Origin: an uncultured Candidatus Rokubacteria bacterium
GTDB lineage: Bacteria > Methylomirabilota > Methylomirabilia > Rokubacteriales > CSP1-6
Assembly (NCBI GenBank): GCA_963747235.1
Contig: CAVVEU010000024.1
Span: 160,001 to 224,000, forward strand
Direction: 5' to 3'
Length of the DNA stretch: 64,000 nucleotides
Positions 8,548-28,417 of the stretch are shown piece by piece (positions within the stretch are counted from its first letter, which is position 1; each line of letters opens with the position of its first letter). A model generated the notes under the pieces. It was not told the origin of the DNA, ran no database searches, and was given only the letters and a program-made list of their open reading frames with translations. Position numbers and translations under genes: made by a program.

Positions 8548-8910
8548 GTGGGTAAGGTGATGGTGGTCGATGACGCCGTGTCAGAGCTGAAACTGATCGA
8601 GGGCATTCTCAAGGCGGCCGGGCATCAGGTGGTGTCGTACGACCACGGTGAGCTCCTGGAAGATCGGGTCGTCGAGGAGCGGCCGGACCTCCTACTGCTG
8701 GACATCGTGATGCCCAAGCGCAACGGCTACGAGGTGCTGCGGGGGCTGCGGCGCGATCCCCGCACCAAGGACACCCCGGTGGTGTTCGTGAGCTCCAAGA
8801 ATCAGGAGAGCGATCGCCTGTGGGGGCAGCGCCAGGGCGCCGCGGACTATCTGGCCAAGCCGTTCACCGCGGACCAGCTTCTCGGCATGGTGCGCCAGTT
8901 CGTGAAATAG
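8548..8910 (+). CDS. Single-domain response regulator, PilH-like
   Basis: VVDD, LLDIVMP, LAKPF, and PilH-like ESDRLWGQRQGA. Confidence 0.88.
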   Translation: MGKVMVVDDAVSELKLIEGILKAAGHQVVSYDHGELLEDRVVEERPDLLLLDIVMPKRNGYEVLRGLRRDPRTKDTPVVFVSSKNQESDRLWGQRQGAADYLAKPFTADQLLGMVRQFVK

Positions 8911-8915
8911 CGCTG

Positions 8916-9431
8916 ATGACCCAGACTCCCGTGATCCCCGTCCTGCCCGCCGCGCCGGATGCCCCTCCGGCGCCGCGCGCCTGCCTGTTCGCGCTGGCCG
9001 GGGCGCGGCTCGCGGTGGACGTGCGGAGCGCCCGCGAGGTGGTGCTCTTCGACGAGATCACCGCAGTGCCCCGGGCCCCCCGGCACCTGGTGGGCGTGGC
9101 GAACCTCCGGGGCACCGTGATGCCGATCGTGGACGTCCGGGAGCTGCTGGGACTGGCAGAATCGCGTCCCGGGCGTACCTTCCGCACGCTGGTCGTGCGC
9201 GATGGCGCCGTGCAGGCGGCCTGGTCGTGGACACCGTGCTCGGGCTCGAGCCCTTCGAGACCGTGATGCCGGCCGACAGCCCGACCGCCGCGGGGATGTG
9301 GGGACCCCGCCCGTTCATGGCCGGCTGGATCCAGTGGGCCGGGGAGACCCTGCCGCTGCTCGACGTCCCGAAGATCCTCGCCGCGCTTCGCGCTTCGAAC
9401 TCCGACGATCGCGCAGGAGGTATCCGCATGA
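8916..9431 (+). CDS. CheW/PilI-like coupling protein; frameshifted near 9222, 3' end uncertain
   Basis: VPRAPRHLVGVANLRGTVMPIVDV, then VDTVLGL...LPLLDVPKIL in another frame; probable stop TGA 9429-9431. Confidence 0.82.
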
Positions 9432-10678
9432 ATCGGAGAGACTTCCTCGGCGGCGTCCTCTCGACGGGTCTCGCGAGCGCGCTCCTTCCGGGCGCCGCCG
9501 CGCGGGCCCAGGCCGGCGAGATCCGGATCGGCATGAGCGCCGCGTTCCGGGGCGCCGCGGCCGGCCTCGGCAGCGAGCTGTACCGGGGCGCCCATGCCTA
9601 CTACAGCGAGATCAACGCGCGCGGCGGCCTGTTCGGGCGGCAGCTCACGGTGGTCGCGCTCGACGATGGCTACAACCCGGACCCGTGCATCCGCAACACG
9701 ATCCAGCTCCTGGACCGCGAGAAGGTGTTCCTGCTCTCCAACTACGTGGGCACGCCGACCCTCACGCGCGCGCTGCCCGTCATCAAGCAGTACGCGGATC
9801 AGGCCGTGGTTCTGGTGGGCAACTTCACCGGCGCCCAGCCCCAGCGCGAGGCCCCATACGTCGATCAGGTCTTCAACATCCGGGCCTCCTACCGGCAGGA
9901 GATGGCGGCGCTGGTGGAGCGCTTCTGGCAGGCGGGGGCGCGGCGGTTCGGCGTCTACTACCAGATCGACGCCTACGGCCGCAGTGGCACCGACGGGGTG
10001 GCGCGGGCTCTCGCCGCGCGCAACGCCAAGATCGTGGCCGAGGCCACCTACGTGCGCAACGCCAAGTTCGAGGAGGACATGACCATCGCGGTCAATGCGC
10101 TCCGCGAGGGCGGCAGTGAGGTCGTGCTGTGCACCGGGGCCTACCAGGGCTGCGCCGCCTTCGTGCGCTCCGCGCGCGACGCGGGCTGGACCGCGCCGAT
10201 CTCCAATGTCTCGTTCGTGGGATCGGACGCCATGCTCGGATTGCTGGTCAAGCACGGCCGCGCGAAGAACCGCGACTACACGCGCGCCTTGATCAATTCC
10301 CAGGTGGTGCCGAGCTACGACGATACCGTCCTGCCGGGCGTGGTCGAGTACCGGGCCCTCATGGACAAGCACAACCCGCAGGTGCCCGAGGCGCTTCGCG
10401 ACGGCGCGTACACGCCGCAGAAGTACAGCTTCATCAGCCTCGAGGGCTACGTGAACGCGCGGGTGATCGTCGAGGCGCTGCGCCGGGCGGGGGCCAGCGC
10501 GGGGCGGTCGTCCTTCCGCCAGGCGCTGGAATCGCTCCGCGGCCTCGATCTCGGGATCGGCGCGCCGCTCACCTTCACGGCCGAGCGGCACCAGGGGCTG
10601 GACAGCGTCTACTTCACGCGGGTCGAGGGCGATCGCTGGGTGCCGGTCGCTGACTGGGCCGCTGCGGTCAAGGCATGA
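9428..10678 (+). CDS. Tat-exported periplasmic binding protein (LivK/Peripla_BP_6-like)
   Basis: AGGAGG RBS, MNRRDFL twin-Arg signal, DDGYNP, VGTPT, FNIRASYRQE, SLEGYVNA. Confidence 0.88.
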   Translation: MNRRDFLGGVLSTGLASALLPGAAARAQAGEIRIGMSAAFRGAAAGLGSELYRGAHAYYSEINARGGLFGRQLTVVALDDGYNPDPCIRNTIQLLDREKVFLLSNYVGTPTLTRALPVIKQYADQAVVLVGNFTGAQPQREAPYVDQVFNIRASYRQEMAALVERFWQAGARRFGVYYQIDAYGRSGTDGVARALAARNAKIVAEATYVRNAKFEEDMTIAVNALREGGSEVVLCTGAYQGCAAFVRSARDAGWTAPISNVSFVGSDAMLGLLVKHGRAKNRDYTRALINSQVVPSYDDTVLPGVVEYRALMDKHNPQVPEALRDGAYTPQKYSFISLEGYVNARVIVEALRRAGASAGRSSFRQALESLRGLDLGIGAPLTFTAERHQGLDSVYFTRVEGDRWVPVADWAAAVKA

Positions 10679-12544
10679 ACATGGGCATGGACAGTCTGAA
10701 GCGGGGCTGGAGGAAGCACGCGATGCGGAAGCGCGCGGAGGGTCCGGGATCGCTCGTCGAGACCACCGTCCCGGCCTCCCGGGCGCGGTTCGGCCTCCTC
10801 GGCAAGATCACGATCTTCCTCGTGCTGGTCCTGCTGCCGGTGGCGATCGTGAGCTGGGTCATCGCCTACCGGTCGCTGCAGGAGAACCTGAGCCGCGAGT
10901 TCACCGACAAGGGCAGCGCCATCGCCAACAGCCTGTCGAGCTCCGCGGCGGACCTCGTGGTCAATCGCGACGCGTCCACCGTGCAGGCCCAGGTCGACGA
11001 GTTCGCCAAGATCTCCGGCGTGGCCTACGTCATGGTCTACGATCCCCAGCGCGCCCTCATCGCCCACACCTTCGCGCCGGTGGTGCCCAAGGGCATCATC
11101 GAGAAGAACGTGGTGCCGGGGCAGGCGACCCGGCCGCAGGTCCAGGAGCTCACCTATCAGGATCCCCGCAGCGGGGGCGAGCGGGAGATCATCGACATCG
11201 GCGTGCCCATGCTGGGCGGCCGCCTCGGTACCGTGCGGGTGGGCATGGACAAGTCGATCATCATCACCGCGGCGGTCGGAGCCGGCAACTTCCTGCTCCT
11301 GGTGCTGGGCGGGATCGCGGCGGCCGCGGTGCTCGCGGGCGTGGTCTTCGCGCAGCGGATCACGCGGCCGGTCAACGCGCTCATGAGCGTGGCCGAGCGC
11401 GTGGGCCGGGGCGACCTCTCCCAGCTCGTGCCGGTCACCTCGCGCGACGAGATCGGCCAGATGGCGGTCACCTTCAACGAATCCATCGTGCGGCTGCGCT
11501 CGCTCGTCCAGACCGAGACCGACCGCGACGAGGAACGCCGCAAGCGCGAGGAGCTGCAGCAGAACATCATCAAGTTCCTCGACACGGTCGTGGAGATCGG
11601 CAAGGGCGACCTCACCCGACGCGGCGAGGTGAGCTGGGACGTGCTCGGCAACGTGGTGGACGCCATCAACCTGATGGTCGAGGAGATCGCCTCGATCGTC
11701 GGCGACGTGCGGCAGGCCGCCCTCCGCGTGGCCTCGGGCTCGCAGGACACCATCCGGATCACCGGCGAGCTCGCGGAGGCGGCGCAGGCCCAGACCCGCG
11801 ACGCGGTGAGCGTGACCCGCTCGGTGGCGGACGTGACGGTCTCGGTGCGCCAGGTCGCGGACAGCGCCGACCAGAGCGCCAAGGCGGCGCGCCAGGTGCT
11901 CCAGGCCGCGAGCAAGGGCGAGGGCGCGGTGCGCAACAGCCTCGCGAGCATGCAGCAGATCCGGGCCGAGGTGCAGACCATCTCCAAGAAGATCAAGTCC
12001 CTCGGCGACCGCTCGCTCGAGATCTCCAACATCGTGAACACCATCCAGGACATCGCGGCCCAGACGCACCTGCTCGCCCTGAACGCCTCCATCGAGGCGG
12101 CGGGCGCGGGCGAGGCGGGGCTGCGCTTCTCGGTCGTGGCGGACGAGGTCCGGAAGCTGGCCGAGCGGGCCACCCAGGCCACCCGGGACATCGGCACGCT
12201 CATCAAGGGCGTGCAGGTGGAGACCCAGGAGGCGGTGGTGGCGATGGAGGCCGGGACCCGCGAGGTCGAGTCCGGGTACGAGGTGAGCCTCAAGGCGGAG
12301 GAGGCCCTCCAGGAGATCGGGAAGATCTCGCAGACGTCCGCCGAGCTCGCCGCCGAGATCTCCCACGCGTCGCAGACGCAGGTCCGGGGCGCCGAGGCGG
12401 CCGCGGGCGCGGTGCAGGCGATCGCGGGCTCGGCGGTGAAGACCGAGCAGGGCGTGCAGCAGAGCCGGACAGAACGTCGAGCAGCTGGCCCGCCTGGCGG
12501 AAGAGCTGACCGCCAAGCTGTCCCGCTTCAAGCTGGCGAGCTGA
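10675..12544 (+). CDS. Methyl-accepting chemotaxis protein (PilJ-like): 2 TM, periplasmic sensor, 2 HAMP; late frameshift near 12470
   Basis: IAAQTHLLALNASIEAAGAGEAGLRFSVVADEVRKLAE; true end probably ...LSRFKLAS-TGA at 12544; start may be ATG 10723. Confidence 0.93.
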
Positions 12545-12548
12545 CGAC

Positions 12549-15502
12549 ATGGCCGATCGGCGCGAGCGCGAGCTGCTGCTGGGCATCTTCCTGATGGAGG
12601 CCTGGGATACCGCCGGGGCCATCGAGGAAGGGCTCGACCGGCTCACCTCCGCGGAGGCCCCGACCGAGGAGGCCCTCGCGACGCTCGTCGTCTTCGCGCA
12701 TCGCCTGAAGGGCTCGGCCGCGCTCCACGGCTTTCCCGGCGTCTCGGAGCTGGCCGGCGGGACCGAGCGGCTGCTCGAGCGCGCCCCCACCGCGTCGGCC
12801 GAGGAGCGGGCGCGCTCGGCCGTCTTCCTGGACGGCCTCGTCGGTCTCCTGAAGGAAGTCTTCGACGGCATCAGCGCGGTCGGGATGGAGGACTCGGCCC
12901 GCATCGGGGAGTTCAAGTCCCGCTATCCCATGTTCTTCTCCGCCGCGGTCGTCGCGCCCCGTCCGGTCGTCGAGCCGGCTGCCGACACATCGCCCGAGCC
13001 GTCCATGATCGCGCCGGCTCCGCTCCGGTCTCGCCGCTGATCGCCGATCTGCGGCGGTTCTTCGCCGAGGGCGGTGAGGTTCTGGAGTACTTCGTGCCCG
13101 AGGCCGCCGAGCATCTGGAGGCGATGACCACGGCCCTGCTCGCCATCGAGGGCGGCGCGCGCGACGAGGACACCCTCGCGACCGTCTTCCGGGCCGCGCA
13201 CACGCTCAAGGGCGCGGCGTACACGGTCGGCTGCGCGCCGCTCGGCGACGCCACCCACCAGATCGAGGATCTCCTCGACGCGGTGCGCGAGCACCGACTT
13301 CCCGTCACGCCGGCGGTGACCGAGGCGATCTTCGCGGGAACCGCGGCCATCAAGCGGGTGCTCCAGTCCGGGGCCGCGGTCTCCGACGAGGCCGCGCAGG
13401 CGCTGGAGCGCGCGACCCGCGACCTGTGCGTCCTGACGGCGTCGGAGAGCCTGCGCGAGCGCGCGGCCCCGCGGCCCGCGGTCGAGGTTCCCGAGCTGGT
13501 CGCGGCCGAGGCGCCGGAGCCTCGCGCTGCCGGCCTCGGTGGAGCTGCCGGCCTTCGTCCGGCCGGAGTTCCTGGCCCGGCTCGAGGCGCTCCCGCGGCC
13601 GGCCCCCCGCGCGGCGAGCGCGCCGACCGGTCCGAGCATCCGGGTGCCGGTGGAGCGGCTCGACACCCTGATGAACCTGGTGGGCGAGCTGATGATCGCG
13701 CGGAGCCGCCTCGACCGGCGTCTGGCCCAGCTCGACCAGGTGAGCGAGCTGCTCCTCGCCAGCCGCACGCGCCTGGGCCAGGTCGGCCGCGACTTCGAGT
13801 TTCGCCGGCAGGCGCCCACGATGCCTCGCGACGACCGCGCCGAGCGCGACGACGCGGGCGAGCTGCGCGACATCTCGGAGCTCTTCGCCGAGCTCGAGTT
13901 CGATCGCTACGACGACATCAGCATCCTGGCCCGCAGCGTGACCGAGATGTCGGCCGACGTGGCCGAGGTGCAGAGCCAGCACGCGATCCTGCTGCGCAAC
14001 ATCCGGGAGGATACCGTCCAGATCCAGCGCCTGACCGCGGCCCTCCGCAAGGAGATCACGCGCGCGCGCATGGTGCCCATCGGCCGGCTCTTCGCGCGGG
14101 TGGCCCAGCAGGTGCGGGAGGCGGCGCGGGCCACCGGGAAGGCGGTGACCCTCACGGTGCGCGGGGAGTCGGCGGAAGTGGACAACGGAATCATCGAGCA
14201 GATCGCCGACCCGCTGTTGCACCTGATCCAGAACGCGGTCGCTCACGGCATCGAGTCGGCCCCGGAGCGCGAGAGCCGCGGCAAGGCGGCCTCCGGCCAC
14301 GTGACCCTGTCCGCGTCCCAGGAGGGCAGCTTCATCCTGGTGGAGGTGGAGGACGACGGGCGCGGGATCGACACCGAGGTGTTGCGCCGGCACGCGGTGG
14401 AGCGCGGGTTCCTGCCCGCGGCCGAGGCCGCGACGCTGCCCGAGGGTGAGGTCCTGAACCTCATCTTCGTGCCGGGCTTCAGCACCGCCTCCGCGGTGAC
14501 CCAGACCGCCGGCCGCGGGGTCGGCCTCGACGTCGTGCGCACCAATGTGAGCCGGCTCAACGGCGAGATCCACGTCGAGACCGAGGCCGGCCGCATGACG
14601 CGCTTCGTGCTGAAGCTGCCCCTCACGATGGCGATCGCGGACGCGCTGATGGTGCGGTGCGGGTCGGAGACCGTGGCGTTCCCGCTCACCGCGGTGAGCG
14701 CGATGCGCTCGGTCGCGCCCCACGAGATCCAGACCGCGGGCGGGCGGGAGACCGTGCAGCTCGACGACCGGATGATCGACCTCGTCCGCCTCGATCGGGC
14801 CCTGGGCCTCGTCGCGGCTCCGCCGCCCTCGCGCCTGCCGGTGGTGGTAATGCGCGGCGGCGGCAAGCCGTTCGGCGTGGTGGTGGACGAGCTCCTGGGC
14901 AAGGAAGAGATCGTCATCAAGAACCTGGGCGCGCTCGTCGACGGGATGGGCCCGTTCTCGGGCGCCACGATCTCGGGCGAAGGTCGCGTGATCCTGCTCC
15001 TCGATCCGACCCTCCTCCGCGAGGCGGCGGCGCGAAAGCCGGCCGCCCCGGTGCGCGAGCCGGCAGGCGCGTCGCTCGACGACCTCGCCCCACCGTCATG
15101 CTGGTGGACGATTCGGTGAGCATCCGGAAGTTCGTGGGCCAGATGCTGGAAAAGGCCGGCTTCCAGGTCGTCACCGCGATCGATGGCCACGACGCGCTCG
15201 AGCAGCTCCTGGAGCGGACGGTGGACGTGGTCGTCACCGATCTCGAGATGCCGCGCGTGAACGGGTACGCCCTGATCGAGGACCTGAGGCGTCGGCCGGC
15301 GACCCGCGAGGTCCCGGTGATCGTGATGACGACCCGAGCGGGCGACAAGCACGCGAACCTGGCCCATCGCCTGGGCGTGCGCCACTACATCACGAAGCCG
15401 GTGGACGAGCAGAGCTTCGTACGGATCGTCGAGTCGGTCGCGGCGGGAGAGCGGGCGCTCGAAGTGGCCGGCGTCCCGCGCGCCGGGAGCCTGGTGGACT
15501 AG
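12549..15502 (+). CDS. CheA/ChpA-like hybrid kinase (Hpt-Hpt-dimerisation-HATPase-CheW-REC); frameshifts near 13020, 13520 and 15085
   Basis: AHRLKGSA and AHTLKGAA Hpt motifs; LMNLVGEL, HLIQNAVAHGIE, DDGRGID, GRGVGLDVV; C-terminal LVDDS...TDLEMP...ITKP. Confidence 0.92.
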
Positions 15503-15505
15503 GCG

Positions 15506-16399
15506 ATGGCCGACGCCAAGGTGCTCGTGGTGGACGCCAACCAGGACAGCCGGGTCGCGCTGGCCCATGCGCTCGCGGAGGCCGGCTACGAGGCGGCGGT
15601 CGCGACGAGCGGCTCGTTCGCGCTGACCATGCTCGAGTGGGAGCAGCCCGACCTCATCGTGAGCTACGCCAAGGTGCAGGACATGGACGGCTACGAGCTG
15701 TTCACGATGGTGCGGCGCGATCCCGCGACGAAGGACACGCCCTTCCTGCTCCTGGCCGGCCGCGATCGGCCCATCGCGCTGGCCGCCACCGAGGCCGGCG
15801 TGGACATGACGGTCACCGGGGACTTCACCCTGGCCACCGTGATGTCGCGCATCAAGGAGCTGCTCGGCGACGAGCCGCCCGCCGCCCCGGTGCGCCGCCC
15901 GGAGCCGCCCGCGGCCGCCAAGGGGCCCGCCAAGATGCCGGCGCGGCCGCCCGCCGCTCCCGCCGTCGCGGCGCCCGCCGCCAAGAGCGCGCTCGAGCCC
16001 GGGCGCAGCAGCTTCCAGGGCTCGCTCGGGGTGATGGACCTGACCGAGCTCACCCAGGTCATCTCGCTCGGGGTCAAGACCGGCGAGCTCCTGCTGTCGC
16101 TGTCGGGCGGCGAGGGGAGCATCCTCTTCGAGGCGGGCCGGGTCATCCACGCCGAGTTCGCGGGCAAGACCGGGGAGCCCGCCTTCGCGGCGATGGTGGG
16201 CGCCTCCCAGCGGGAAGGCGAGGCGCGCTTCTGCTTCAACCGCGCCGAGCGCGAGACGCTGGCGGGACGGCCGCGCACCATCTCGCGCAGCGTGGAGCAG
16301 CTCCTTCTGAGCGTGGCGCAGGCGATCGACGAGGGAACCCAGGGAGCCGACGGGCGCCGGGAGGCCGCCGCCGCCCGTGGACCGCGGCGGGACGGATAG
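15506..16399 (+). CDS. Atypical receiver domain + Pro-rich linker + DUF4388/PatA-N-like domain
   Basis: REC-like fold lacking canonical residues (VVDAN, DLIVSY, no KP); FQGSLGVMDLTELTQVISLGVKTGELLL...GSILFEAGRVIHAE. Confidence 0.8.
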   Translation: MADAKVLVVDANQDSRVALAHALAEAGYEAAVATSGSFALTMLEWEQPDLIVSYAKVQDMDGYELFTMVRRDPATKDTPFLLLAGRDRPIALAATEAGVDMTVTGDFTLATVMSRIKELLGDEPPAAPVRRPEPPAAAKGPAKMPARPPAAPAVAAPAAKSALEPGRSSFQGSLGVMDLTELTQVISLGVKTGELLLSLSGGEGSILFEAGRVIHAEFAGKTGEPAFAAMVGASQREGEARFCFNRAERETLAGRPRTISRSVEQLLLSVAQAIDEGTQGADGRREAAAARGPRRDG

Positions 16400-16402
16400 A
16401 TC

Positions 16403-17284
16403 ATGCCCAAGGTGCTGGTCGTAGACGACAGTCTCAGCGTTCGGAAAGTCGTGCAGCGGGCGCTGGAGTCGAAGCGCATCGAGGTGCTGTCGGCGGCCTC
16501 GGGAAGCGAGGCGATGGAGCAGATCGCGCGCGAGGCGCCGGACCTCATCGTCTGCGACGTGATCATGCCGGACATGGACGGCTACCAGATCTGCGACTTC
16601 GTGAAGAAGCATCCGACCCTCGGGCACACGCCGGTGCTGCTGATCTCGGGCATCGTCAACAGCACCGTGCTCGAGCGCGCCGCCAAGGTTCGCTCGGATG
16701 ACGTGATGCGGAAGCCCTTCGCGGCCGACGAGCTCCTGCATCGCATCGAGAGCCTGCTGCCCGCCGCGGGGCGCCCCGCGCCGGCCGCTGCGCCCCCGCC
16801 GGTTGCCGGGGCTGCCCCGACCGCGTCGGCCGCGGCTCCGACCCCGGCGCCCGAGCGTCGTGCGCCCCAGCCCGAACGCCCGGCTCCCGTCGCGGAGCCG
16901 GTCGCGGTCGCCGCGCCGGCGCCTGCGCCGGGTCCCGATCTCAAGGCGTTGCTCGCCGGGGTGGCCGAGCTGGCCGGGGTCTCCCTGATCGCGCTGATCG
17001 ACCGCGAGGGGGCCCTGATGGAAGTCGCGGGCGGGCTCCTTCCCGAAGCCGAGCTCGCGGGGGCCCTCGCGGCTTGTCTCGTCGAGTCGACCGACGGGGT
17101 GGGCCGGGCCCTGACCCAGGGGCGTCTCCAGAGCTTGATCCTCGAATACGACGCGGGTGTCGTGCTGCTGAATGCCGTCGGTGCGGGCGCGATGCTCGCG
17201 GTCGTTCTTGGCGATCCGGCGGTGCTCGGCAAGGTGCGGTACCACGTGAAGAAAGCGCTCCCGGACCTGGTCCGGGCGGTGTGA
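16403..17284 (+). CDS. Receiver domain + Pro/Ala linker + roadblock/LC7 (MglB-like) domain
   Basis: Canonical REC (VVDDS, VCDVIMP, MRKPF); C-terminus GVSLIALIDREGALM...LQSLILEYDAGVVLL...LGKVRYHVKK. Confidence 0.85.
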   Translation: MPKVLVVDDSLSVRKVVQRALESKRIEVLSAASGSEAMEQIAREAPDLIVCDVIMPDMDGYQICDFVKKHPTLGHTPVLLISGIVNSTVLERAAKVRSDDVMRKPFAADELLHRIESLLPAAGRPAPAAAPPPVAGAAPTASAAAPTPAPERRAPQPERPAPVAEPVAVAAPAPAPGPDLKALLAGVAELAGVSLIALIDREGALMEVAGGLLPEAELAGALAACLVESTDGVGRALTQGRLQSLILEYDAGVVLLNAVGAGAMLAVVLGDPAVLGKVRYHVKKALPDLVRAV

Positions 17285-17295
17285 GGCCTTCCTCC

Positions 17296-20233
17296 ATGAG
17301 AACGTCCTATCATTCCGTGTCCAGCGCCCAGCGACTCTCGTCGTGGCTGATGGCGGTGCTGGGGCTGGCCGCGTATGTCGGCCTCATCTACGTCCTGACC
17401 CTCGTGCCTCTTCAGTTCGAGGTGCCGCTGCCGAAGTGGGCCGTCGCGAGCATCCCTCCGGTGGCGTACGGCCTGCTGGTCTGGCTATGGGTTCGCCGTC
17501 CATCCGTCGTGCGCTGGCTCGTGGGCACCGCGGTCCTGAGCGGCCTCCACGTCTTGCTGAGCATGTCGCGGGAGCCGCTCAGTGCGCTGCTCGATCCGGC
17601 GCTCGCGGGGCGCGCCCTGCCCTGGATGCTGCCGCCGCCCTTGCCGGAGCTGATCGGCGTGATGCTGCTCCTGGTGCCGCTCCGTGATCTGCTGCACGCG
17701 CCCGTCCGCCTTCCCCGCGAGCGGAGCGCCGTTGCCGCGCGCCCGTCGGCGAGTCTTCGGGCTCGCGCCGCCACGCCCGCGCGCGTGCAGGCCGCGCCCC
17801 CGCTCGAGGGCATGGGATCCCTGAGCGACGCGCTGCTCTCGCGAAACGAGCCGGCTCCCGAGCCGGGCGTGATTCCCGCTCCGATGATGCCGATGGCGCC
17901 GCCCCCGCCCCGCGCCGGTACCGGACGAGGAGCCCCGTCGCCGCCGCGCCGCCGCCGCGAAGCGCCGGCGCGAAGCGCAGCCGGCCCGTGCGCCCGGCCG
18001 ATCGGAAGTGGTGCTGCGGATCGCGCTCGACCGCGTCATGGACCAGTTTCCCCCCGGCACCTTCCTCGCCCCGGAGGATGAGGTCGCGGCGAGCCTGAGC
18101 GACCCCGGCTTCCTGCGGATCTCGGGCGAGCTCGTGGTCACCCAGCTCTCGGAAGGCGTGGCGCGGGTCGCGTGGAACGATATCGCCGACCAGTTCCCGG
18201 CCCACCTGGTGGGATTGAGCAAGGCCGAGATCGCCGAGCACCTGGGAGACGGTCTACGGCTTCCCCTCGATGAGGTCATCAGCCAGTTCCCGCAGGAGCT
18301 GTTCGTCGCGGACACGCCGGAGGTCGAGATCCACGGGCTCCACCGGATCCCGGTCCCGTTCCATCCGATGGAGGAGTCTGCCGCGCCGAGCGAGACGGCC
18401 GCGGTGATCCCGCCGGAGCCGGAGATCACACCGGCACCGGAGATCAGGCCGATGCCGCTGCTGGACGCGCCGACCGCGGCGACGAAGGAGAGCAAACCGG
18501 TGCCGCCCGCGGTGCCGTCGTGGATGGCGCCGCAGCGCGTGGAGCATCTCGATCCGGTCGAGATCGAGGCACCCGCCGCGCCCCAGCCGATCGAGGTGCA
18601 GGAGCATGAGCCGGCCCCGGTCGACCGCTGGGCCGCCGCTCCCGAGAGCGACGAGCCGACGGTGCGCATCTCCTGGAGTCGCGTGGCAGCGGAGCTTCCC
18701 GTGGAGGCGTTCAACGTCCCGCTGGACCAGGTGGCCGAGCGGATGCGTCAGCCCGGCGCGCTGCTGATCCCGCAGTCGCTCGTGCTGCCTCAGCTCGCGG
18801 AGGGCCTGATCCGCGTGGGCTGGGACGTGATCGCGCCGCAGTTCCCCCGTGAGGCAATGGCCGTGTCGGACACGGAGATGGCGGAGCGCCTGCCGAACGG
18901 CCTTCGTCTCCCGCTGGACGAGATCGTCCGGCAGGTTCCACTGGATCTCTTCATGGCCGTCGGCCCGGCCGCCGACGTCCGCGGCCTCGAGTACTTTCCG
19001 GCGCCCTTCCAGCCCCTCGTGTCGGATCCGGCACCCGAGGCGCCGGTCGAAGCGCCCGTTCCCGAGCCCGAGATCGAGACCCCCGGGATCGAGACTGTAG
19101 TCGCCGAGGAGTCGCGGGAGCTCGTGGTCGAGCCTGCGCCCGCTCTCGTCCTGCCCACGGAACCCGAGCCCATCGTGGCCGACGATCCGGTGGTCGACCT
19201 CGTGCCGGATCCGATCGAGGAGCTTCCGGTCGTCCCGATGGTCGAGCCGGACCGTCCTCTCGATCTCGACACGCACGTCGTGCTCGACGAGCCTTCGCGG
19301 GTCGTGACCGCTCCGAGCCCGGCGATCGCGCCGGCCCGCGCGCCGCTGCCCCAGCCCGCATTCTCCTGGCCGAAGCCGTCGCCGGCCCGGGCCGCCGTCA
19401 CGACCTGGGCCGATCCGACGCCGGCCGCGCCGACCCCCGCCGCGCTCGTCCCGGGCCCCGCGGAGGCGGCGGAGGCCAGGCGCATCGTCGCGCTGCTGGC
19501 GCCGATCGCGTCCTTCGACGTGAGCGTCCAAGCGGTCGAGGGCGTCACCGTCTTTGCGATGGCCTCGCCCACGGTGGCGCATGAAACCGCGGTCGCGGTG
19601 GCGGGTCTCGCGCTGCCCCTGTTCACGGATCGCCGTCCGCCGTGGCCGGTGGATCAGATCACGTTGCGCGGGCCGGAGACGGCCGTCGTGCTGACCCCGC
19701 TCGGTGGTCCGGGCGATCGTGGCCCCGTCCTCGCGGCCGCGGCGCCCCGCGGCGGCGCCCTCGCGCTGCTCGAGATCCTCTGCCGGCGCGCCGCGGACGA
19801 CCGCGCCGGGCGCCCCGCGGGCCCGGGCCACGATGTGGTTCCGGCGGTCAGCTCGAGCCTGGCCCCGGCGGCGGTGCCGAGCCGGGCGGCGGCTCTCACG
19901 CGAGGGCTGACCGCGTTCGGCGACGTCACCGCGTCGGTGCTGAGAGACGCGGAAAGCGAAGCGGTTCTCTACTTCTTCCTGCCGGCGGGAGACGACGTGC
20001 CCGCGGTGGGAGCGTTCGCGCAGGACCTCCACGCCGTGATGCGCAAGGCGGCGGGGTCAGGCGCCGTGTTCCGGACCGCGATCCTGCGATCCGGCGACAC
20101 GCTCCTCGTCATCCAGCCCGAGGAAATCGGGCATGGGCGGTCGATCGTCATCGTCGCGGGTGGATCCGTCACCCGGCCCGGCTTGGCCTATCGCCAGGTC
20201 GAGCGCGCGGCGGCGACGCTGATGTCGGCCTGA
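17296..20233 (+). CDS. Large hypothetical membrane protein: ~4 N-terminal TM helices, duplicated ~119-aa domain, Pro/Glu linkers, two degenerate roadblock-like domains; frameshift near 17910
   Basis: ORFs 17074..18081 and 18008..20233 appear to be one gene; the internal repeat and C-terminal pattern are visible in translation. Confidence 0.65.
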
Positions 20234-20242
20234 GGCGACTCG

Positions 20243-20860
20243 ATGTCGATCATCAACTACGCGCAAAAAGAGATCAGCTTCAAGATCGTCTACTACGGCA
20301 CCGGCGTGGCCGGGAAGACCGCCAACCTCCAGTACATCTACCGCGGGCTCCCGGACGTCAACCGCGGCAACATGGTGTCGCTCGCGACGGGAGACGATCG
20401 GACCCTCTTCTTCGACTTCCTGCCGGTCTCCGCGGTGACGGTGCGGAACTTCGTGGCCAAGTTCCAGCTCTACACGGTGCCGGGCCAGATCTACTACAAC
20501 ATGACGCGCAAGCTCGTGCTGCGGGGCGTCGACGGCATCGTCTTCGTCGCGGACTCGCAGTGGGATCGCCTGCCCGAGAACGTGGAGAGCTTCAGAAACC
20601 TCGAAGAGAATCTCAAGGAGTACGGGTACAATCTTGACGAGATCCCGTACGTGATCCAATACAACAAGCGGGATCTGCCCAACGTGGCTCCGGTGGAGTA
20701 CCTCGAATACATGCTGAACCGGAAAAGTCGGCGGGTCCCGTACTTCGAATCGGTCGCCGTCGAGGGCAAGGGCGTGTTCGACACGCTCAACACTGTCTCT
20801 CGCATGGTCCTCGTCGCCGGGTTCGGACAAGAACAGGGGGCGCTCAATGAGTCTAAATGA
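20243..20860 (+). CDS. mglA: MglA-family small Ras-like GTPase
   Basis: KIVYYGTGVAGKT, DRTLFFDFLP, LYTVPGQ, GVDGIVFVADSQ, QYNKRDLP. Confidence 0.95.
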   Translation: MSIINYAQKEISFKIVYYGTGVAGKTANLQYIYRGLPDVNRGNMVSLATGDDRTLFFDFLPVSAVTVRNFVAKFQLYTVPGQIYYNMTRKLVLRGVDGIVFVADSQWDRLPENVESFRNLEENLKEYGYNLDEIPYVIQYNKRDLPNVAPVEYLEYMLNRKSRRVPYFESVAVEGKGVFDTLNTVSRMVLVAGFGQEQGALNESK

Positions 20861-21335
20861 CAACCTGGCCATCCACGAGGAGGACGCGCAGCGGATCAAC
20901 GGCGTCCTCCTGCACTTCCTGGGCGAGTCGGGTGCGATGGAATCGCTCCTGATCGACCGGAGCGGACAGCTCCTGGCGCGCGGCGGCGCCTCGCGGTCGC
21001 TCGACACCGTGTCGCTCTCCGCGCTCGCCGCGGGCGCGTTCAGCTCGACCGCCGCGATGGCGCGGCTGCTCGGCGAGACCGAGTTCACCATGCTGTTCCA
21101 TCAAGGCGTGAAGGAGAGCATCCACGTGGCCGCGGTGGACGAGCACGCGATCCTGCTCGCCATCTTCGACAGCCGGACCACGGTGGGCATGGTGCGTCTC
21201 TTCGCCAAGGAGGCGGGCACCGCGATCGGGGCCATCCTGGCCGAGACCCGGACGCGGCCTCAGCGCACCGGCGTGCTGTCCACGCCGCTGGGCAAGGACG
21301 AGGTGCAGTCCTCGCTGCGGGAGCGTCCGGTCTAG
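20847..21335 (+). CDS. mglB: MglB roadblock protein (MglA GAP)
   Basis: LIDRSGQLLA, DTVSLSALAAGAF, LGETEFTMLFHQG, FDSRTTVGMVRL. Confidence 0.92.
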   Translation: MSLNDNLAIHEEDAQRINGVLLHFLGESGAMESLLIDRSGQLLARGGASRSLDTVSLSALAAGAFSSTAAMARLLGETEFTMLFHQGVKESIHVAAVDEHAILLAIFDSRTTVGMVRLFAKEAGTAIGAILAETRTRPQRTGVLSTPLGKDEVQSSLRERPV

Positions 21336-21354
21336 CTGACGGACACCGACTACC

Positions 21355-23433
21355 ATGGCGCAGACTGACAACAAGACCTCGCTGTCCTCGGAAGAGAAGC
21401 GGTCCCTGGCCGAGTCGGCCCGGCTCTGCGAGATGATCGTGGAGGCCAACCCCTCGGACACCGGCGCGCTCGAGACCCTGAAGGAGATCTACACCAAGCT
21501 AGGTGATCGGGAGAACCTGGCCCGGGTCGTCGCGCGCCTCGCCGGTACGGTGGGGGGGCGGCCGTCCGCGAGCGTGGCCCCGGCCCCGGAGCCCATGACC
21601 GCGGGGACGACGGGTCGCGCGCCGTCGACCGAGGAGATGGAGGCGCTCGCCGCGTCCATCGAGGTCGCGCCGGCCCCGTTGCCCGGCAAGCGGGGCGGCG
21701 CCTCGCCGATCGAGCGGCGCCAGGGCAGCCTGTCGCGCCTCGGGGACCGGCTGGTGGCCGAGAAGCTCATCAGCCCGGACCAGCTCCAGCGCGCGCTCGC
21801 CGAGCAGAAGGGGAGCGCCGACAAGCTCGGGACGATCCTGGTGCGGCTGCAGTTCATCACCGAAGACAGCCTCGTCTCGTTCCTGTCGAAGCAGTACGCG
21901 ATGCCCGCGATCACGGTGGCGCAGGTGGATCCGGATCCGGACGTGCTCAAGCTCGTGCCCGAGCAGATCGCCAAGAAGCACAGCGTGCTCCCGATCAAGC
22001 GGATCGGGAACGTCCTCACCCTGGCGATGGCGGATCCCACCAACGTCTTCGCGCTCGACGACGTCGGCTTCATGACCGGCCTGCAGATCCAGCCGGTGGT
22101 CGCCTCCGAGGCGGCCATCCGGAAGGCCTTCGAGCGGCTCTACGAGACCGGCGCCAGCGTCAACGACATGATGAGCGAGCTGGAGGAGGCCGACACCGAC
22201 GTCGAGGTCGTGGAGGACGGCGAGGCCGCCTTCTCCAAGGCCGACGTTTTCGACCTCAAGGAGTCGGCCGACGAGGCTCCGGTCGTCCGGCTCATCAACA
22301 TGATCCTGACCGACGCCATCCGGCGGGGCGCCTCCGACATCCATCTGGAGCCCTACGAGAAGGTCTTCCGGGTCCGGTTCCGTATCGACGGCGTGCTGCA
22401 CGAGATCATGACGCCGCCCAAGCGCCTCGAGGCCGCCCTGACCTCGCGCGTGAAGATCATGGCCACGATGGACATCGCGGAGCGCCGACTTCCCCAGGAC
22501 GGCCGCATCAAGCTCCGCTACCACCAGCGCGAGATCGACTTCCGCGTCTCGACGCTGCCGACGATCTTCGGCGAGAAGACCGTCATGCGTATCCTGGACA
22601 AGGAAGCGCTCCAGCTCGACCTGGGCGCCCTCGGCTTCGACCCGTGGAGCCTCGAGCAGTTCAGCAAGGCGATCCACAGCCCGTACGGCATGATCCTGAT
22701 CACCGGGCCGACCGGCTCCGGCAAGACCACCACGCTGTACTCGGCCATCCACACCATCAACTCGCCGGACATCAACATCATGACCGCCGAGGATCCGGTC
22801 GAGTACAACCTGAAGGGCGTCAACCAGGTGCAGGTCAACGACGAGATCGGGCGCACCTTCGCGGCCTGTCTGCGAAGCTTCCTGCGGCAGGACCCGGACG
22901 TGATCCTGGTCGGCGAGACCCGAGACCTCGAGACGGCCCAGATCGGCATCCGCGCCGCCCTGACCGGCCACCTCGTGCTCTCCACGCTGCACACCAACGA
23001 CTGCCCGTCGACGCCCGCCCGGCTCCTCGACATGGGCATCCCGCCCTTCCTCGTCTCGTCCTCGCTCCAGCTCATCCTGGCCCAGCGGCTCGGACGCCGG
23101 ATCTGCAAGGACTGCAAGGAGCCCTACGAGGCGAACGAGGAGAGCCTGGTTCCCTACGGGCACGTGTCCCAGGGGCTCGGCGCCGTGAACTTCTACAAGG
23201 GCAAGGGCTGCCAGACGTGCAACTTCACCGGCATGAAGGGACGGGTCGCCATCTACGAGGTGATGCCCATCACCACCGAGCTCCGCGATCTCATGCTGCG
23301 CAACGCGACCACCGCGGAGATCCGCGATACCGCCTGCTCGCAGGGCATGAAGACGCTGCGGCAGAACGCGCTGCAGAAGGTGGTGGACGGCGTGACGACG
23401 GTGGAGGAAGTGCTGCGGGTGACGATGGGCTAG
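21355..23433 (+). CDS. pilB: Type IV pilus assembly ATPase PilB/GspE family with N-terminal TPR-like and MshEN segments
   Basis: Walker A GPTGSGKTT, EDPVEY, LRQDPDVILVGE, STLHTN, CKDC...CQTC; RLGDRLVAEKLISPDQLQRALAEQ. Confidence 0.9.
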   Translation: MAQTDNKTSLSSEEKRSLAESARLCEMIVEANPSDTGALETLKEIYTKLGDRENLARVVARLAGTVGGRPSASVAPAPEPMTAGTTGRAPSTEEMEALAASIEVAPAPLPGKRGGASPIERRQGSLSRLGDRLVAEKLISPDQLQRALAEQKGSADKLGTILVRLQFITEDSLVSFLSKQYAMPAITVAQVDPDPDVLKLVPEQIAKKHSVLPIKRIGNVLTLAMADPTNVFALDDVGFMTGLQIQPVVASEAAIRKAFERLYETGASVNDMMSELEEADTDVEVVEDGEAAFSKADVFDLKESADEAPVVRLINMILTDAIRRGASDIHLEPYEKVFRVRFRIDGVLHEIMTPPKRLEAALTSRVKIMATMDIAERRLPQDGRIKLRYHQREIDFRVSTLPTIFGEKTVMRILDKEALQLDLGALGFDPWSLEQFSKAIHSPYGMILITGPTGSGKTTTLYSAIHTINSPDINIMTAEDPVEYNLKGVNQVQVNDEIGRTFAACLRSFLRQDPDVILVGETRDLETAQIGIRAALTGHLVLSTLHTNDCPSTPARLLDMGIPPFLVSSSLQLILAQRLGRRICKDCKEPYEANEESLVPYGHVSQGLGAVNFYKGKGCQTCNFTGMKGRVAIYEVMPITTELRDLMLRNATTAEIRDTACSQGMKTLRQNALQKVVDGVTTVEEVLRVTMG

Positions 23434-23458: not shown

Positions 23459-23893
23459 TCAGACGGGAGAAACCCGCCAGGTGCCGCGCAGCCGATCCAC
23501 GGCGCGGCCGAGCGCGGTGCGAACCCCCTCGTTGTTCACGTTGCGATCCGCGACGAGCGTCACGTAGCCGACCGGGCTGCCCCCCACGAAGACGGTCCCG
23601 TCGTCCGCCGAGAAGAGCGCGGTGCGGAAGGCGCCCCGTTCCAGCCGGCTCGCTCCCAGCTCCAGCTCACGCCCGAGGGTGGCCGCGAGCGCGGCGAGCG
23701 CCTCCACCGGGAAGCGGGGCGGCAGCTCCGAGGTGATGACGAGGCCGTCCGGCGTCACGATGAGCCCCCCGCGCACGCCATCGAGACGGGTCAGCTCGGA
23801 GAGGGTCTCGCGGAAGGCCTGCGCCCGCGACGGGCGCGGCGCGGGCGGGCCGCCCGGAGGCGTCGAATCGGCGGTGGTCTGCGGGTCGGCCAT
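23459..23893 (-). CDS. Stand-alone roadblock/LC7 protein
   Basis: LDGVRGGLIVTPDGLVITSEL...EALAALAA...NVNNEGVRTAL. Confidence 0.88.
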   Translation of the reverse strand: MADPQTTADSTPPGGPPAPRPSRAQAFRETLSELTRLDGVRGGLIVTPDGLVITSELPPRFPVEALAALAATLGRELELGASRLERGAFRTALFSADDGTVFVGGSPVGYVTLVADRNVNNEGVRTALGRAVDRLRGTWRVSPV

Positions 23894-23897
23894 CGGC

Positions 23898-24680
23898 TCA
23901 GGCCTTGATGTTCAGATCCGTCCACAGACGGCCGACCTGCACCAGCCCCGCTCCCACCTCGACCTCGCGCGCGAGCGCGACGCCCAGGATCACGCCGCCG
24001 TCGCTGCGAAGGAAGGTCGTCTCCGCGGCGCCCTCGATCACGCCCCGTCGCATCGCGCCGAGCCCGGCGCGGGCGAGCGTGGCGGAGGCGATGCGGTAGA
24101 CCTGCGTCATGTGCAGCCTGAGGTGCTTCTGGCGCTCCTCGCTCCCCTGGGCGAACACGAGCGTGCCGTCGGCCCGCGTCAGCACGAGGTCGTGAGCGCC
24201 CGGAGGCAGCCGCAGCCGCTCGGTGGAGATCGTCCCGATGGCGGTCGAGGCTCCCGGCGCGGGGGCGGTCCAGGTGGCCACCATCTCCTGCAGCGCCTTC
24301 GCTTCCGGGAAGTCCGGGAAGTACTGGATCGCCCGGTCGAGGAATGGCCGGCACCCCTCGATGTCGCCCTCTTCCAGCGCGATGCGCGCCAGGCCGAACA
24401 GGGCGCGCGGGTGGTAGGGATCGAGCCCGAGCACGCGCCGGAACGATGCCTTGGCCGCGGGCATCTCGCGAAACACGACGTGCAGGTAGGCGTCCAGCAG
24501 GTGCCCGACCGCGATGTTGGGCGAGACGCGCAACCCCTCGGTGATCAGCTCGGCGGCGTCCTCGTAGCGCCCTTCGTGGCGGTACTGGTCGGCCAGGCGG
24601 AAGAGAGAGGAGGCCGAGCGTGGCTTGACGAGCCCGGTGATGCCGCTCCAGGTGCGCTCGAGGAACGTCGCTAGGCCCAC
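23898..24680 (-). CDS. TPR repeats + C-terminal roadblock-like domain
   Basis: LADQYRHEGRYEDA...SPN, VLGLDPYHPRALFGLA (TPR); DLVLTRADGTLV...LGAMRRGVIEG...VEVGAGL. Confidence 0.75.
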   Translation of the reverse strand: MGLATFLERTWSGITGLVKPRSASSLFRLADQYRHEGRYEDAAELITEGLRVSPNIAVGHLLDAYLHVVFREMPAAKASFRRVLGLDPYHPRALFGLARIALEEGDIEGCRPFLDRAIQYFPDFPEAKALQEMVATWTAPAPGASTAIGTISTERLRLPPGAHDLVLTRADGTLVFAQGSEERQKHLRLHMTQVYRIASATLARAGLGAMRRGVIEGAAETTFLRSDGGVILGVALAREVEVGAGLVQVGRLWTDLNIKA

Positions 24681-26794: not shown

Positions 26795-26796
26795 CC

Positions 26797-28417
26797 TCAG
26801 CCGGCCGCGATCCCTCGCTCCGAAGGCAGGACGTATCCTTGCTGCAGATCGCGCGCGCGCAGGGCCGGGTCGCGCTCCGCGGGATCGCCGTAGCCGCCGC
26901 CGCCCGGCAGCAGGAGCTCCACCAGGTCGCCGGGGCGTAGCGTCTGCTCGGCCTTGGGATTGGCGGGCGCGCGCCCGTTGATCAGCACCTGCCCGGGCAG
27001 GCCGGGTCGGCCGCCGAAGAACCCCTGCGCCGGGATCCGCGTGCGATCGCACAGGACGGAGCAGGTGGCCGGCTCGTCGGAGCGCACCCGGAACGCGATC
27101 ACCTGGCCGAGCCCGCCGCGCTGGCGGCCGTCGCCGCCCGAGCCGCCGCGAAGGGCCTTGCGCTCGATCAGCAGCGGCGCGAGCGATTCGATGACCTCGA
27201 CCGGGGTCCCGAGCACGCCCGACGGGAACGCGGTGGCGGACAGCCCGTCCTGCTGGGGACGCGCCCCGGTGCCGCCCGAGCTGAAGAAGGTGTAGACCCA
27301 CGGGCGTGCGGTCGGCGTTCTTGCCGGTGAGCTGGAGCCCCCAGATGTTCGCGGAGCCCTCGGCCATCACCCGGTCCGGCAGGGCTTCCTTCAGGGCGCC
27401 CGCCACCGCGTGGGGCAGGAAGTGGCCGACGATGTGCCGGGCCGCCACCGGGGCGGGGGGCCGCACGTTCAGGATGGAGCCCTCGGGCGCGGTGATGCGG
27501 AGCACCCGGAAGGCACCCTCGTTGTTGGGGACGTCGGGGCTCACGATGACCTTCACCCCGTAGGTCGTGTAGGCCTCGGTGTAGTTCATCACCACGTTGA
27601 TGCCGCGCCGGCTGGCGGGGGAGGAGCCGGTGAAGTCGACGAGAAGATCGTCCCCCTTGATCTCACAGCGCACCGCGATCGTGATCGGCTCGTCGAAGCC
27701 GTCCGAGGTGATGGAGTACCGGTACTCGCCGGGCCGCAGCGCGGCGATCGCCTGGCGCATGGCCCGCTCGGTGCGGGAGATGATCTCGTCGGCCAGCGGC
27801 TCCAGCCGCTCGAGGCCGAATTCCTCCATGAACTCGAGCAGGCGCTCGCCCCCGACGGTGCCGCCCGCCACCTGCGCGTGGAAGTCGCCCATCACGAGGT
27901 CGGGGACGCGGGTGTTGGCCCGGATGATCGCGGCGAGCGACTCGTTGAGCCGGCCGCCTTCGTAGAGCTTCATGATCGGGATGAAGAGACCTTCCTCGTA
28001 GACCTCACGCGCCTCGGCGGAGAGCACGTGGCCGCCGATGTCGGCGCTGTGGCAGGTGGAGGCGAAGAAGGCGATGCAGTCCGACCCGCGGAAGACCGGA
28101 TTGCAGACCGTGACGTCGTTGAGATGCCCCGAAGTCTTCCAGGGATCGTTGGTGATGAGCACGTCGCCGGGCCGGAGCGTCTCGAGCGGGTACGCGGCGA
28201 GGAAGTGCTTCATGGCCAGGGCCATCGAGTTGATGTGCCCGGGCGTGCCGGTGACGGCCTGGGCGATCATGTAGCCGCGCCGGTCGAAGACGCCCGCGGA
28301 GAGATCGCCCGCCTCGCGCACGATCGAGGTGAACGAGGTGCGCATGAGCGCGGCAGCCTGCTCGTTGACCACCCCGATCAGCCGGTTCCAGCAGATGTCG
28401 AGCGTGATCGGATCCAT
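26797..28417 (-). CDS. Hydantoinase B/5-oxoprolinase subunit; frameshift near 27300
   Basis: RTSFTSIVREAGDLSAG, TNDPWKTSGHLND, HSADIGG, PGGGGYGDP. Confidence 0.9.

Follow-up and report, generated by a model that had tools for sequence, protein, structure and literature searches.

A receiver-Roadblock response regulator in a Rokubacterium chemosensory operon and its predicted docking on a membrane protein with a probable tandem Roadblock-like C-terminus

On what does a chemosensory pathway act when the last response regulator of its operon carries a Roadblock domain behind its receiver? This question is raised by a gene (product P0001, in the following the target or the fusion) of an uncultured Candidatus Rokubacteria bacterium, which was identified in a stretch of 64,000 nucleotides of contig CAVVEU010000024.1 (the window, meaning the whole of the DNA analysed here) and which is followed in the same orientation by genes for a membrane protein, the small GTPase MglA, the Roadblock protein MglB and the type IV pilus ATPase PilB. 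A sequence-only reading of the locus had suggested a phosphorylation-controlled MglA regulator and had discussed it in the setting of Myxococcus; the host is a metagenome-assembled genome (MAG) of the Methylomirabilota/Rokubacteria and not Myxococcus. The overall explanation found to fit best, to which a probability of about 0.5 is given, is that of a regulator which forms an output of a type IV pilus-type chemosensory pathway and docks on a membrane-anchored Roadblock platform.

The target open reading frame (ORF) starts with ATG, is open throughout and upon translation yields a product of 293 amino acids (aa). As the window has a GC content of about 70%, many long spurious ORFs are found in it, yet the GC content at third codon positions (GC3) of the target ORF is 0.88, which is as expected of a real gene in such DNA and hence marks the ORF as coding; overlapping ORFs in the other frames do not possess this pattern. 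Pfam identified Response_reg (PF00072) at residues 4-116 (E 6.3e-25, 88 bits with a cut-off of 30.2), and the active-site residues of a receiver are present in the translation, i.e., D8, D9, the phospho-acceptor D52, S82, K104 and P105. Within an alignment of 33 receiver-Roadblock proteins, whose identity goes down to 32%, D8, D52, K104 and P105 never vary and at least 90% retain S82, while the linker length was found to be highly variable among the homologues. According to a sequence search against the PDB the receiver is of the generic canonical type. The intact receiver and the Pro/Ala-rich linker (residues ~117-182), both of which had been noticed from the letters of the DNA, were thus borne out. 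All 120 homologue clusters listed possess both Pfam domains (85-100% identity, 283-301 aa), hence the fusion did not arise by chance, and the gene aligns with its relatives over its full length, both ends included. Among the clusters listed, the named close homologues come from Methylomirabilota/Rokubacteria MAGs, and the JGI name given to target homologues is 'CheY-like chemotaxis protein/predicted regulator of Ras-like GTPase activity'. Judged by its sequence, the gene encodes a genuine signalling protein of a soil Rokubacterium, i.e., a phosphorylatable receiver that is tethered to a Roadblock domain.

The C-terminal domain was characterized at the level of both sequence and fold. Robl_LC7 (PF03259) matches residues 183-268 (E 5.6e-8, 32.9 bits with a cut-off of 23), the folded unit comprises residues 170-293 with the third helix included, and among 38 chosen distant relatives 26 match Robl_LC7 at E <=0.01, 20 of them above the cut-off. 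AlphaFold (AF2), using an alignment of 35 sequences, modelled the C-terminal 124 aa with a predicted local distance difference test (pLDDT) of 94.7 and a predicted template modelling score (pTM) of 0.86 as an alpha-beta-beta-alpha-beta-beta-beta-alpha unit, so that hidden Markov model and structure prediction agree on the Roadblock fold which had been proposed before. Structural comparison by Foldseek revealed template modelling (TM) scores of 0.80-0.84 to Asgard Roadblock3 and to the MglB proteins of Myxococcus xanthus and Thermus thermophilus. With VIA-align, the highest similarities were found to 9jue_F (Z 18.5, root-mean-square deviation (rmsd) 1.7, 117 residues aligned) and 3kye_C (Z 18.1), followed by MglB (Z 16.7-17.6, rmsd 1.9-2.8; for 6h5b_C Z 17.6, rmsd 2.5, 119 aligned), LAMTOR2 (Z 16.4-16.6) and, at a distance, MglC (7ct3, Z 11.7, rmsd 2.6, 101 aligned). 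At the sequence level the solved protein matched best is CvnB5 (3LEQ, E 4.3e-6), and solved MglB chains are matched by the target Roadblock with 20-24 bits and 21-24% identity, as compared to 90 bits for the true MglB encoded downstream; an MglB model is not found among the 25 best of the 94 NCBIfam matches of P0001, and a search up to E 10 gave no sequence match to MglC. Of the earlier description of the domain as MglB-like, the fold holds but the sequence does not follow, i.e., the likeness to MglB is one of fold level only.

Within a chemosensory operon that contains the sole CheA of the genome, the target is the final response regulator. Scans of the own genome located its only CheA dimerisation domain, its only DUF4388 match and all of its three Robl_LC7 matches within this cluster, whereby such statements hold for an assembly which is 88% complete. 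The receiver-PATAN (REC-PATAN) gene ends 3 nt before the target, and the target ends 12 nt before the gene of the membrane protein. About 3 kb downstream of the target and in the same orientation, true MglA, MglB (3.6 kb downstream) and PilB are encoded: for MglA, phmmer gave E 1.6e-71 to the T. thermophilus and 5e-68 to the M. xanthus protein; MglB matches M. xanthus MglB at E 7e-25 and reaches 80 bits on the NCBIfam MglB model, which is under the cut-off of 200; PilB scores 749.8 bits on TIGR02538 (cut-off 675.65).

The phyletic distribution of these components was determined by scanning 251 genomes of the phylum with the target Roadblock domain, MglA (presence threshold E 1e-30) and the C-terminal 272 aa of the membrane protein as queries. 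As related genomes are not independent, the resulting counts are descriptive and do not serve as statistics; they include genomes flagged as unpublished (G217 throughout, G044 and G034 for MglA only). The target Roadblock was matched in 99 genomes with one match each, in 95 of them within an open frame of at least 243 aa, MglA in 123 and the membrane-protein C-terminus in 89. Fusion and MglA are both found in 74 genomes, the fusion only in 25, MglA only in 49 and neither in 103, while for fusion and membrane-protein C-terminus the respective numbers are 85, 14 (fusion only), 4 (partner only) and 148; at least one of the 14, G242, has a diverged membrane-protein homologue adjoining the fusion. 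The tightest phyletic companion of the fusion is the downstream membrane protein. In family f1 (Rokubacteria), which holds the genome studied here, the fusion is present in 84/158 and MglA in 77/158 genomes, and genera tend to possess both or neither. Among the 21 genomes of family f2, the fusion occurs in 11 and MglA in none; in five f2 genomes that are 94-99% complete, MglA was not found at E 0.01 either, and no Robl_LC7 match other than the fusion exceeds the cut-off, i.e., these genomes are without MglB. The opposite distribution is seen for f7 (fusion 2/21, MglA 19/21), f8 (0/15, 14/15) and f10 (0/6, 5/6). As a consequence, the co-occurrence with MglA that is expected of an MglB does not hold throughout, 25 of the 99 fusion genomes being without MglA at the threshold used, and the link of the fusion to MglA is lineage-specific, not obligate.

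Gene order in ten full-length related loci, most of which are labelled Methylomirabilota or Rokubacteria, provided a more detailed view. Methyl-accepting chemotaxis protein and CheA precede the fusion in 10/10 loci and the periplasmic binding protein does so in 9/10, the contig of the remaining locus (L006) beginning inside the chemotaxis-protein gene; a homologue of the membrane protein is found downstream of the fusion in 10/10. A full REC-PATAN gene is present in 8/10 loci, and all six of these with a contig of sufficient length have MglA and MglB. Full-length PilB, the third Roadblock gene and the tetratricopeptide repeat (TPR) gene occur in 5/10, the latter two as a convergent pair right after pilB. 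In L006 and L007 a plain receiver replaces REC-PATAN, and within the flank no MglA, MglB or PilB is encoded, hence PATAN was reasoned to track the MglA/PilB addition. Taken together, synteny and family counts define a conserved core: the genes of the Che operon, a small receiver that may or may not carry PATAN, the fusion gene and the gene of the membrane protein. In family f1 this core is extended by MglA, MglB, PilB, the third Roadblock and the TPR protein. As an aside, three of the loci (L001, L004 and L009) are labelled Limnocylindria, Nitrosotalea sp. and Deferrimicrobiaceae; with 77-86% identity to the Rokubacteria protein and complete synteny, they probably represent mis-binned or mislabelled MAG contigs.

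These findings bear directly on the idea of a phosphorylation-switched MglA regulator. It assumes that the Roadblock domain, as homodimer or as heterodimer with MglB, binds MglA itself and thereby works as GTPase-activating protein (GAP), as anti-GAP or as exchange factor, which would connect CheA to the GTPase in one step. The idea is consistent with a canonical Roadblock fold that is as near to MglB as to any other Roadblock, with the co-oriented true MglA and MglB genes 3 kb downstream, with the presence of fusion and MglA on a single contig, 2.3-4.2 kb apart, in 59 of the 74 genomes that have both, and with the both-or-neither tendency of the f1 genera. It is not easily reconciled with f2, where the fusion is kept without MglA or MglB, with the families f7, f8 and f10, whose MglA-bearing members mostly do without the fusion, or with the low score against solved MglB chains next to an MglB neighbour that scores 90 bits. 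Moreover, MglB binds MglA via a hydrophobic patch on helix alpha2 with small residues at the contacting positions (A68/A72 in T. thermophilus, A64/G68 in M. xanthus), and the exchange A68R/A72R weakens binding tenfold in Thermus, as shown by Miertzschke et al. (PMC3199381). At the positions of A68/A72, alignment with HMMER and MAFFT places E228/G232 in the target, S/A in the MglB of the window and R/L in the third Roadblock, an argument which is soft, since the underlying alignment is a weak one of 24 bits and E is the commonest residue at the 228 position in only 18 of 35 family members. The MglB-type C-terminal tail is likewise absent from the fusion. Considering this, the fusion is probably not a second MglB and probably serves as adaptor rather than as GAP; the direct regulation of MglA in one step is rated unlikely. 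The earlier proposal of a phosphorylation-controlled MglA regulator thus stands with regard to the setting, i.e., the last regulator of a Che operon that is linked to MglA in most genomes with both, but is weakened by a canonical MglB next door, by the residues at alpha2, by an MglA link which is dispensable in f2 and by the fact that the closest companion is the membrane protein.

The membrane protein itself had no matching model in Pfam and NCBIfam. At E <=1e-5, 168 homologues were identified, 120 of which are listed without a Pfam domain, all source names given being 'hypothetical protein'. In congeners, the protein possesses three to four N-terminal hydrophobic segments. For its last 272 aa, AF2 with nine sequences yielded a model (pLDDT 82.7, pTM 0.82) with two tandem alpha-beta-beta-alpha-beta-beta-beta-alpha units, and comparison of this tandem model with 48,161 chains by VIA-align matched the second unit to Roadblock structures, with MP1-p14 (2zl1_B, Z 8.8, rmsd 2.9, 110 aligned), Asgard Roadblock3 (9jue_D, Z 8.7) and T. 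thermophilus MglB (3t1r_A, Z 8.1) among the matches. From this model, the membrane protein probably ends in two Roadblock-like domains. A separate observation concerns positions 18008-18990 of the window (residues 1-330 of ORF 18008-20233), where two repeats of ~100 aa follow the membrane anchor and precede the Roadblock-like pair; both contain a conserved run that ends in a Q-F-P motif. These repeats are missing from the 633-656 aa homologues of the family without MglA; Pfam and NCBIfam gave no lead to them, and the ESM Atlas, searched with residues 1-330, gave unnamed clusters with a best value of 0.88.

Complex prediction was carried out with the target Roadblock domain and the C-terminal 272 aa of the membrane protein, using self-made alignments. 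Three runs gave interface scores (ipSAE) of 0.75, 0.75 and 0.76, while the best of three controls gave 0.00; in a benchmark the mark was reached by 116/157 solved complexes and 2/215 mismatched pairs, counts which are only rough here because of the self-made alignments. At least 82% of contacts are shared between the runs, and the partner was modelled with a pLDDT of at least 83. On the side of the target, the modelled interface takes in domain residues 30-39, which form the beta1-beta2 hairpin, and residues 48-59 in the first half of helix alpha2; the hairpin carries D31 and R32 in 27/35 and G34 in 34/35 sequences. On the side of the partner, residues 112-121 and 253-260 at the beta5-alpha3 junctions of the two units are involved, and five of the 21 invariant residues of the partner (G114, A117, E120, G256 and R260) are included. 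The mean conservation on this side is 0.81 within the interface and 0.64 elsewhere. The complex model therefore supports binding of the fusion Roadblock to the C-terminus of the membrane protein, albeit as a prediction. With the alpha2 side of one Roadblock placed on the alpha3 side of a pair, the predicted geometry recalls the MglC-MglB model and the layers of Ragulator-Rag, as described in PMC10329633.

The same geometry is also what an adaptor of MglC/RomR kind would be expected to use, as it likewise sets the alpha2 side of the fusion on the alpha3 side of another Roadblock pair. Here, the fusion would be the one-chain equivalent of RomR (receiver and Pro-rich linker) and MglC (Roadblock), its Roadblock would bind the MglB dimer or the third Roadblock and recruit this partner to a cell pole, and the membrane protein would have no role. 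As to the features of RomR, the receiver and the Pro/Ala linker are found in the fusion, whereas an acidic alpha-helical C-terminus is not, its place being taken by the Roadblock. Possible partners are at hand, since MglB is encoded in 6/10 and the third Roadblock in 5/10 loci, but the fusion is kept in genomes without MglB, its fold is less similar to MglC (Z 11.7) than to MglB and generic Roadblocks (Z 16.7-18.5), a sequence match to MglC is absent, and the membrane protein is the tighter phyletic partner; an adaptor of this kind is regarded as quite unlikely.

A further alternative considers the Roadblock domain as a mere handle for dimerisation or localisation, with the protein being a phosphate sink or an accessory CheY that has no dedicated partner. 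Roadblock domains are classic dimerisation modules, as the fold matches recall, three other receivers are encoded in the cluster, and the long flexible linker speaks against rigid allosteric coupling. Furthermore, a contig of 12 kb that is labelled Thermoanaerobaculia has kept CheA-REC, CheW and a PATAN protein together with a relative of receiver-Roadblock type that shares 65% identity with P0192 (itself 34% identical to the target), but neither the membrane protein nor MglA is found near the fusion; this contig is the sole full-length match outside the phylum and all cross-phylum context rests on it. A simple handle would hardly account for a Roadblock domain that 98 genomes of the phylum retain at 42-98% identity and never in more than one copy, for a hairpin motif whose conserved surface lies away from the usual dimer interface, or for the tight co-occurrence with the membrane protein, and among the explanations considered this one was judged very unlikely.

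Returning to the docking of the fusion on the membrane protein, the following sequence of events is suggested. The gene product would be the output response regulator of the type IV pilus-type chemosensory pathway, and the FrzE-like CheA-REC kinase would phosphorylate D52 of its receiver. The Roadblock of the fusion would serve as docking and not as GTPase-activating module: with its hairpin and the first half of alpha2 it is predicted to sit on the helix-alpha3 side of the tandem pair of the membrane protein, so that the Roadblocks would stack into a platform similar to that of MglC on MglB or of Ragulator. Phosphorylation of the receiver may then, via the long flexible Pro/Ala linker, alter the occupancy, the oligomeric state or the partners of this platform. 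In family f1 the platform would adjoin MglA, MglB, PilB and the third Roadblock and relay chemosensory input to the polarity switch and the pilus motor, while in the sister family without MglA and MglB the same core would act on something else. A wider claim is put forward tentatively and is judged less likely than not to hold: receiver-Roadblock and membrane protein would form a bacterial Ragulator-like platform which is switched by chemosensory phosphorylation, whose two-gene core, persisting in the sister family without MglA or MglB, is older than the coupling to MglA/MglB, and which in f1 physically links a Frz-like kinase to MglA/MglB and PilB.

Several points weigh against this proposal. 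The Roadblock nature of the partner derives from a model built with nine sequences, in which the first unit is the weaker one (CvnB 3leq Z 6.0, MglC Z 5.3); Foldseek gave no real match to the tandem model (best E 3e-3, TM 0.12), and profile-profile comparison of the membrane-protein family with Roadblock domains gave a probability of 0.2%, which leaves homology of the partner to Roadblocks without support at the sequence level. In the complex model, a domain which usually forms dimers was present as a single copy and self-made alignments were used, and as Roadblock-on-Roadblock complexes have been solved (Ragulator, MglB dimers), the high score may reflect likeness to known structures. On the side of the fusion, conservation is barely higher within the interface (0.51) than elsewhere (0.47). 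The Thermoanaerobaculia-labelled contig shows the fusion with neither membrane protein nor MglA nearby. Other receivers of the cluster, i.e., the CheY-like protein, CheA-REC and REC-PATAN, could be the main outputs, and phosphotransfer, binding and the effect on the pilus are all inferred. Finally, the genes for CheA and for the partner are read in several frames here, possibly as a result of error or decay.

Regarding this last point, the CheA-REC gene is spread over four frames in the window, while relatives have a single ORF of ~970-1076 aa with the receiver at its end; the membrane-protein gene is spread over two frames, as compared to a single ORF of 970-986 aa in three translated congeneric loci. 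Net frame changes were located near 12966-13023, 13519 and 15065-15084 (CheA-REC) and near 17909 (membrane protein), all of them within Pro/Ala-rich linkers. Among public runs, none contained at least half of the sampled words of 12900-18100, the best value being 0.39 and coming from soil metagenomes. The frame changes may possibly be assembly indels or genuine decay, either one. Two related observations were made outside these genes: the CheW match halts at profile position 80 of 138, right before the next ORF, which points to a possible frame change near 9215-9266, and a 1677-aa open frame on the reverse strand (25235-30268) carries Hydantoinase A and B domains, the B match of which ends at profile position 373 of 519, a stop that may be another frame change in the assembly.

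Table 1. Positions of the genes and domains of the chemosensory cluster within the window
Feature	Position	Strand	Evidence
Stand-alone CheY-like receiver, first gene of the cluster	8548..8910	+	Pfam Response_reg E 3e-24
CheW-like gene	8820..9266	+	Pfam CheW E 3.6e-17, only profile positions 3-80 of 138 in this frame
Periplasmic binding protein (Peripla_BP_6)	9227..10678	+	Pfam E 6e-45
Methyl-accepting chemotaxis protein (sCache, HAMP, MCPsignal)	10675..12594	+	Pfam
FrzE-like hybrid kinase CheA-REC (Hpt, Hpt, dimerisation, ATPase, CheW-like, REC)	12549..15502	+	Pfam on pieces
Receiver-PATAN (DUF4388) response regulator	15506..16399	+	Pfam Response_reg E 2e-12, DUF4388 E 2.4e-12
Receiver-Roadblock response regulator gene (P0001)	16403..17284	+	ORF, translation, GC3, Pfam, full-length homologues
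REC domain, residues 4-116	16412..16750	+	PF00072, invariant active-site residues
Pro/Ala-rich linker, residues ~117-182	16751..16948	+	Translation; gapped unconserved alignment columns
Roadblock/LC7 domain	16949..17281	+	PF03259, AF2 model, Foldseek, VIA-align
Membrane protein with N-terminal hydrophobic segments, two ~100-aa repeats and probable C-terminal Roadblock-like pair	17296..20233	+	ORFs, homologues, model
Probable tandem Roadblock-like domains of the membrane protein, predicted docking site	19415..20230	+	AF2, VIA-align, complex model
MglA orthologue (small Ras-like GTPase)	20243..20860	+	phmmer
MglB orthologue (Roadblock GAP type, C-terminal tail)	20847..21335	+	Robl_LC7 51.5 bits, match to M. 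xanthus MglB
PilB type IV pilus extension ATPase, N-terminal MshEN cyclic di-GMP (c-di-GMP) motif	21355..23433	+	TIGR02538, NF053729, Pfam T2SSE and MshEN
Third stand-alone Roadblock protein	23459..23893	-	Robl_LC7 31.9 bits
TPR protein beside the third Roadblock gene	23898..24680	-	Pfam TPR families

Some of the neighbours deserve a comment of their own. The MshEN-type motif of PilB (NF053729, 69.6 bits) suggests that the pilus motor of the cluster may also read c-di-GMP, and two PilT-family ATPases above cut-off are encoded elsewhere in the genome. For the third Roadblock, which was considered as a possible counterpart of MglC, the sole solved proteins matched in sequence are Asgard archaeal Roadblocks. 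In the REC-PATAN protein the receiver is N-terminal and PATAN is C-terminal, and the domain order of cyanobacterial PatA-type proteins is opposite to this.

The two-domain architecture of the target is the same as that of five sequences with an N-terminal receiver and C-terminal similarity to MglB reported by Wuichet and Sogaard-Andersen in 2014 (PMC4316618), who state that such fusions are listed in Pfam and also record MglA/MglB genes near PATAN proteins. The architecture is thus already catalogued but unstudied: in the available text of that report the fusion is assigned neither function nor partner nor operon context, and the Rokubacteria supercluster and a tandem-Roadblock membrane protein go unmentioned. 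Within the literature searched, partly at abstract level, it was the only paper found to name both Response_reg and Robl_LC7, while an experimental study of a receiver-Roadblock fusion and a paper naming both Rokubacteria and MglA were not found. What is new here is the hidden tandem Roadblock-like partner, the predicted interface and the distinction, drawn from phyletic distribution, between the core and the MglA/MglB addition. With the organism being uncultured, the architecture catalogued and the mechanism wholly inferred, the relevance of the locus is seen in its composition: Frz-like kinase, receiver-Roadblock protein, membrane protein with a probable Roadblock-like pair, MglA, MglB and pilus ATPase lie in one co-oriented run and provide a compact set of soluble domains. 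If it holds true that the ~950-1080 aa 'hypothetical proteins' without a Pfam match end in two Roadblock-like domains, bacterial Roadblock scaffolds would extend beyond MglB and MglC.

Among known systems, the thaumarchaeal response regulators with the output domain NitrOD3 are likewise receiver-linked and Roadblock-related, a relation defined by HHpred only (Galperin et al. 2018, PMC5847659); unlike the target they are archaeal and are not part of Che or pilus operons. The actinobacterial conservon protein CvnB (3LEQ) acts together with a histidine kinase and an MglA-like GTPase; it is a stand-alone protein without receiver and is likewise encoded outside a Che or pilus operon. MglB (T. thermophilus 3T12/1J3W, M. 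xanthus 6H5B/6HJM) shares with the target the Roadblock fold and, in f1, the neighbourhood of MglA, whereas the target possesses an N-terminal receiver and a linker, lacks the C-terminal tail and occurs in genomes without MglA. The system RomR/MglC/MglB of M. xanthus, as portrayed in PMC10329633, is alike in its receiver and Pro-rich linker, in a Roadblock adaptor that stacks on another Roadblock pair, as is predicted for the target, and in a Frz-like kinase upstream, and the output of the Frz chemosensory system onto the MglA/MglB polarity module is described there as unknown. It differs from the present case in that two polypeptides take the place of one, in that the acidic C-terminal helix of RomR is replaced here by the Roadblock, and in that MglC has MglB as its partner, while the partner predicted for the target is the membrane protein. 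The Roadblock stacks of Ragulator/Rag (LAMTOR2/3, 5Y39, 6EHR) regulate a small GTPase by means of membrane-anchored layers of Roadblock pairs, and LAMTOR2 is among the best structural matches of the target; the system suggested here is set apart from them by being bacterial, by its control through a two-component receiver and by an anchor that would be a polytopic membrane protein with both Roadblock-like units in one chain.

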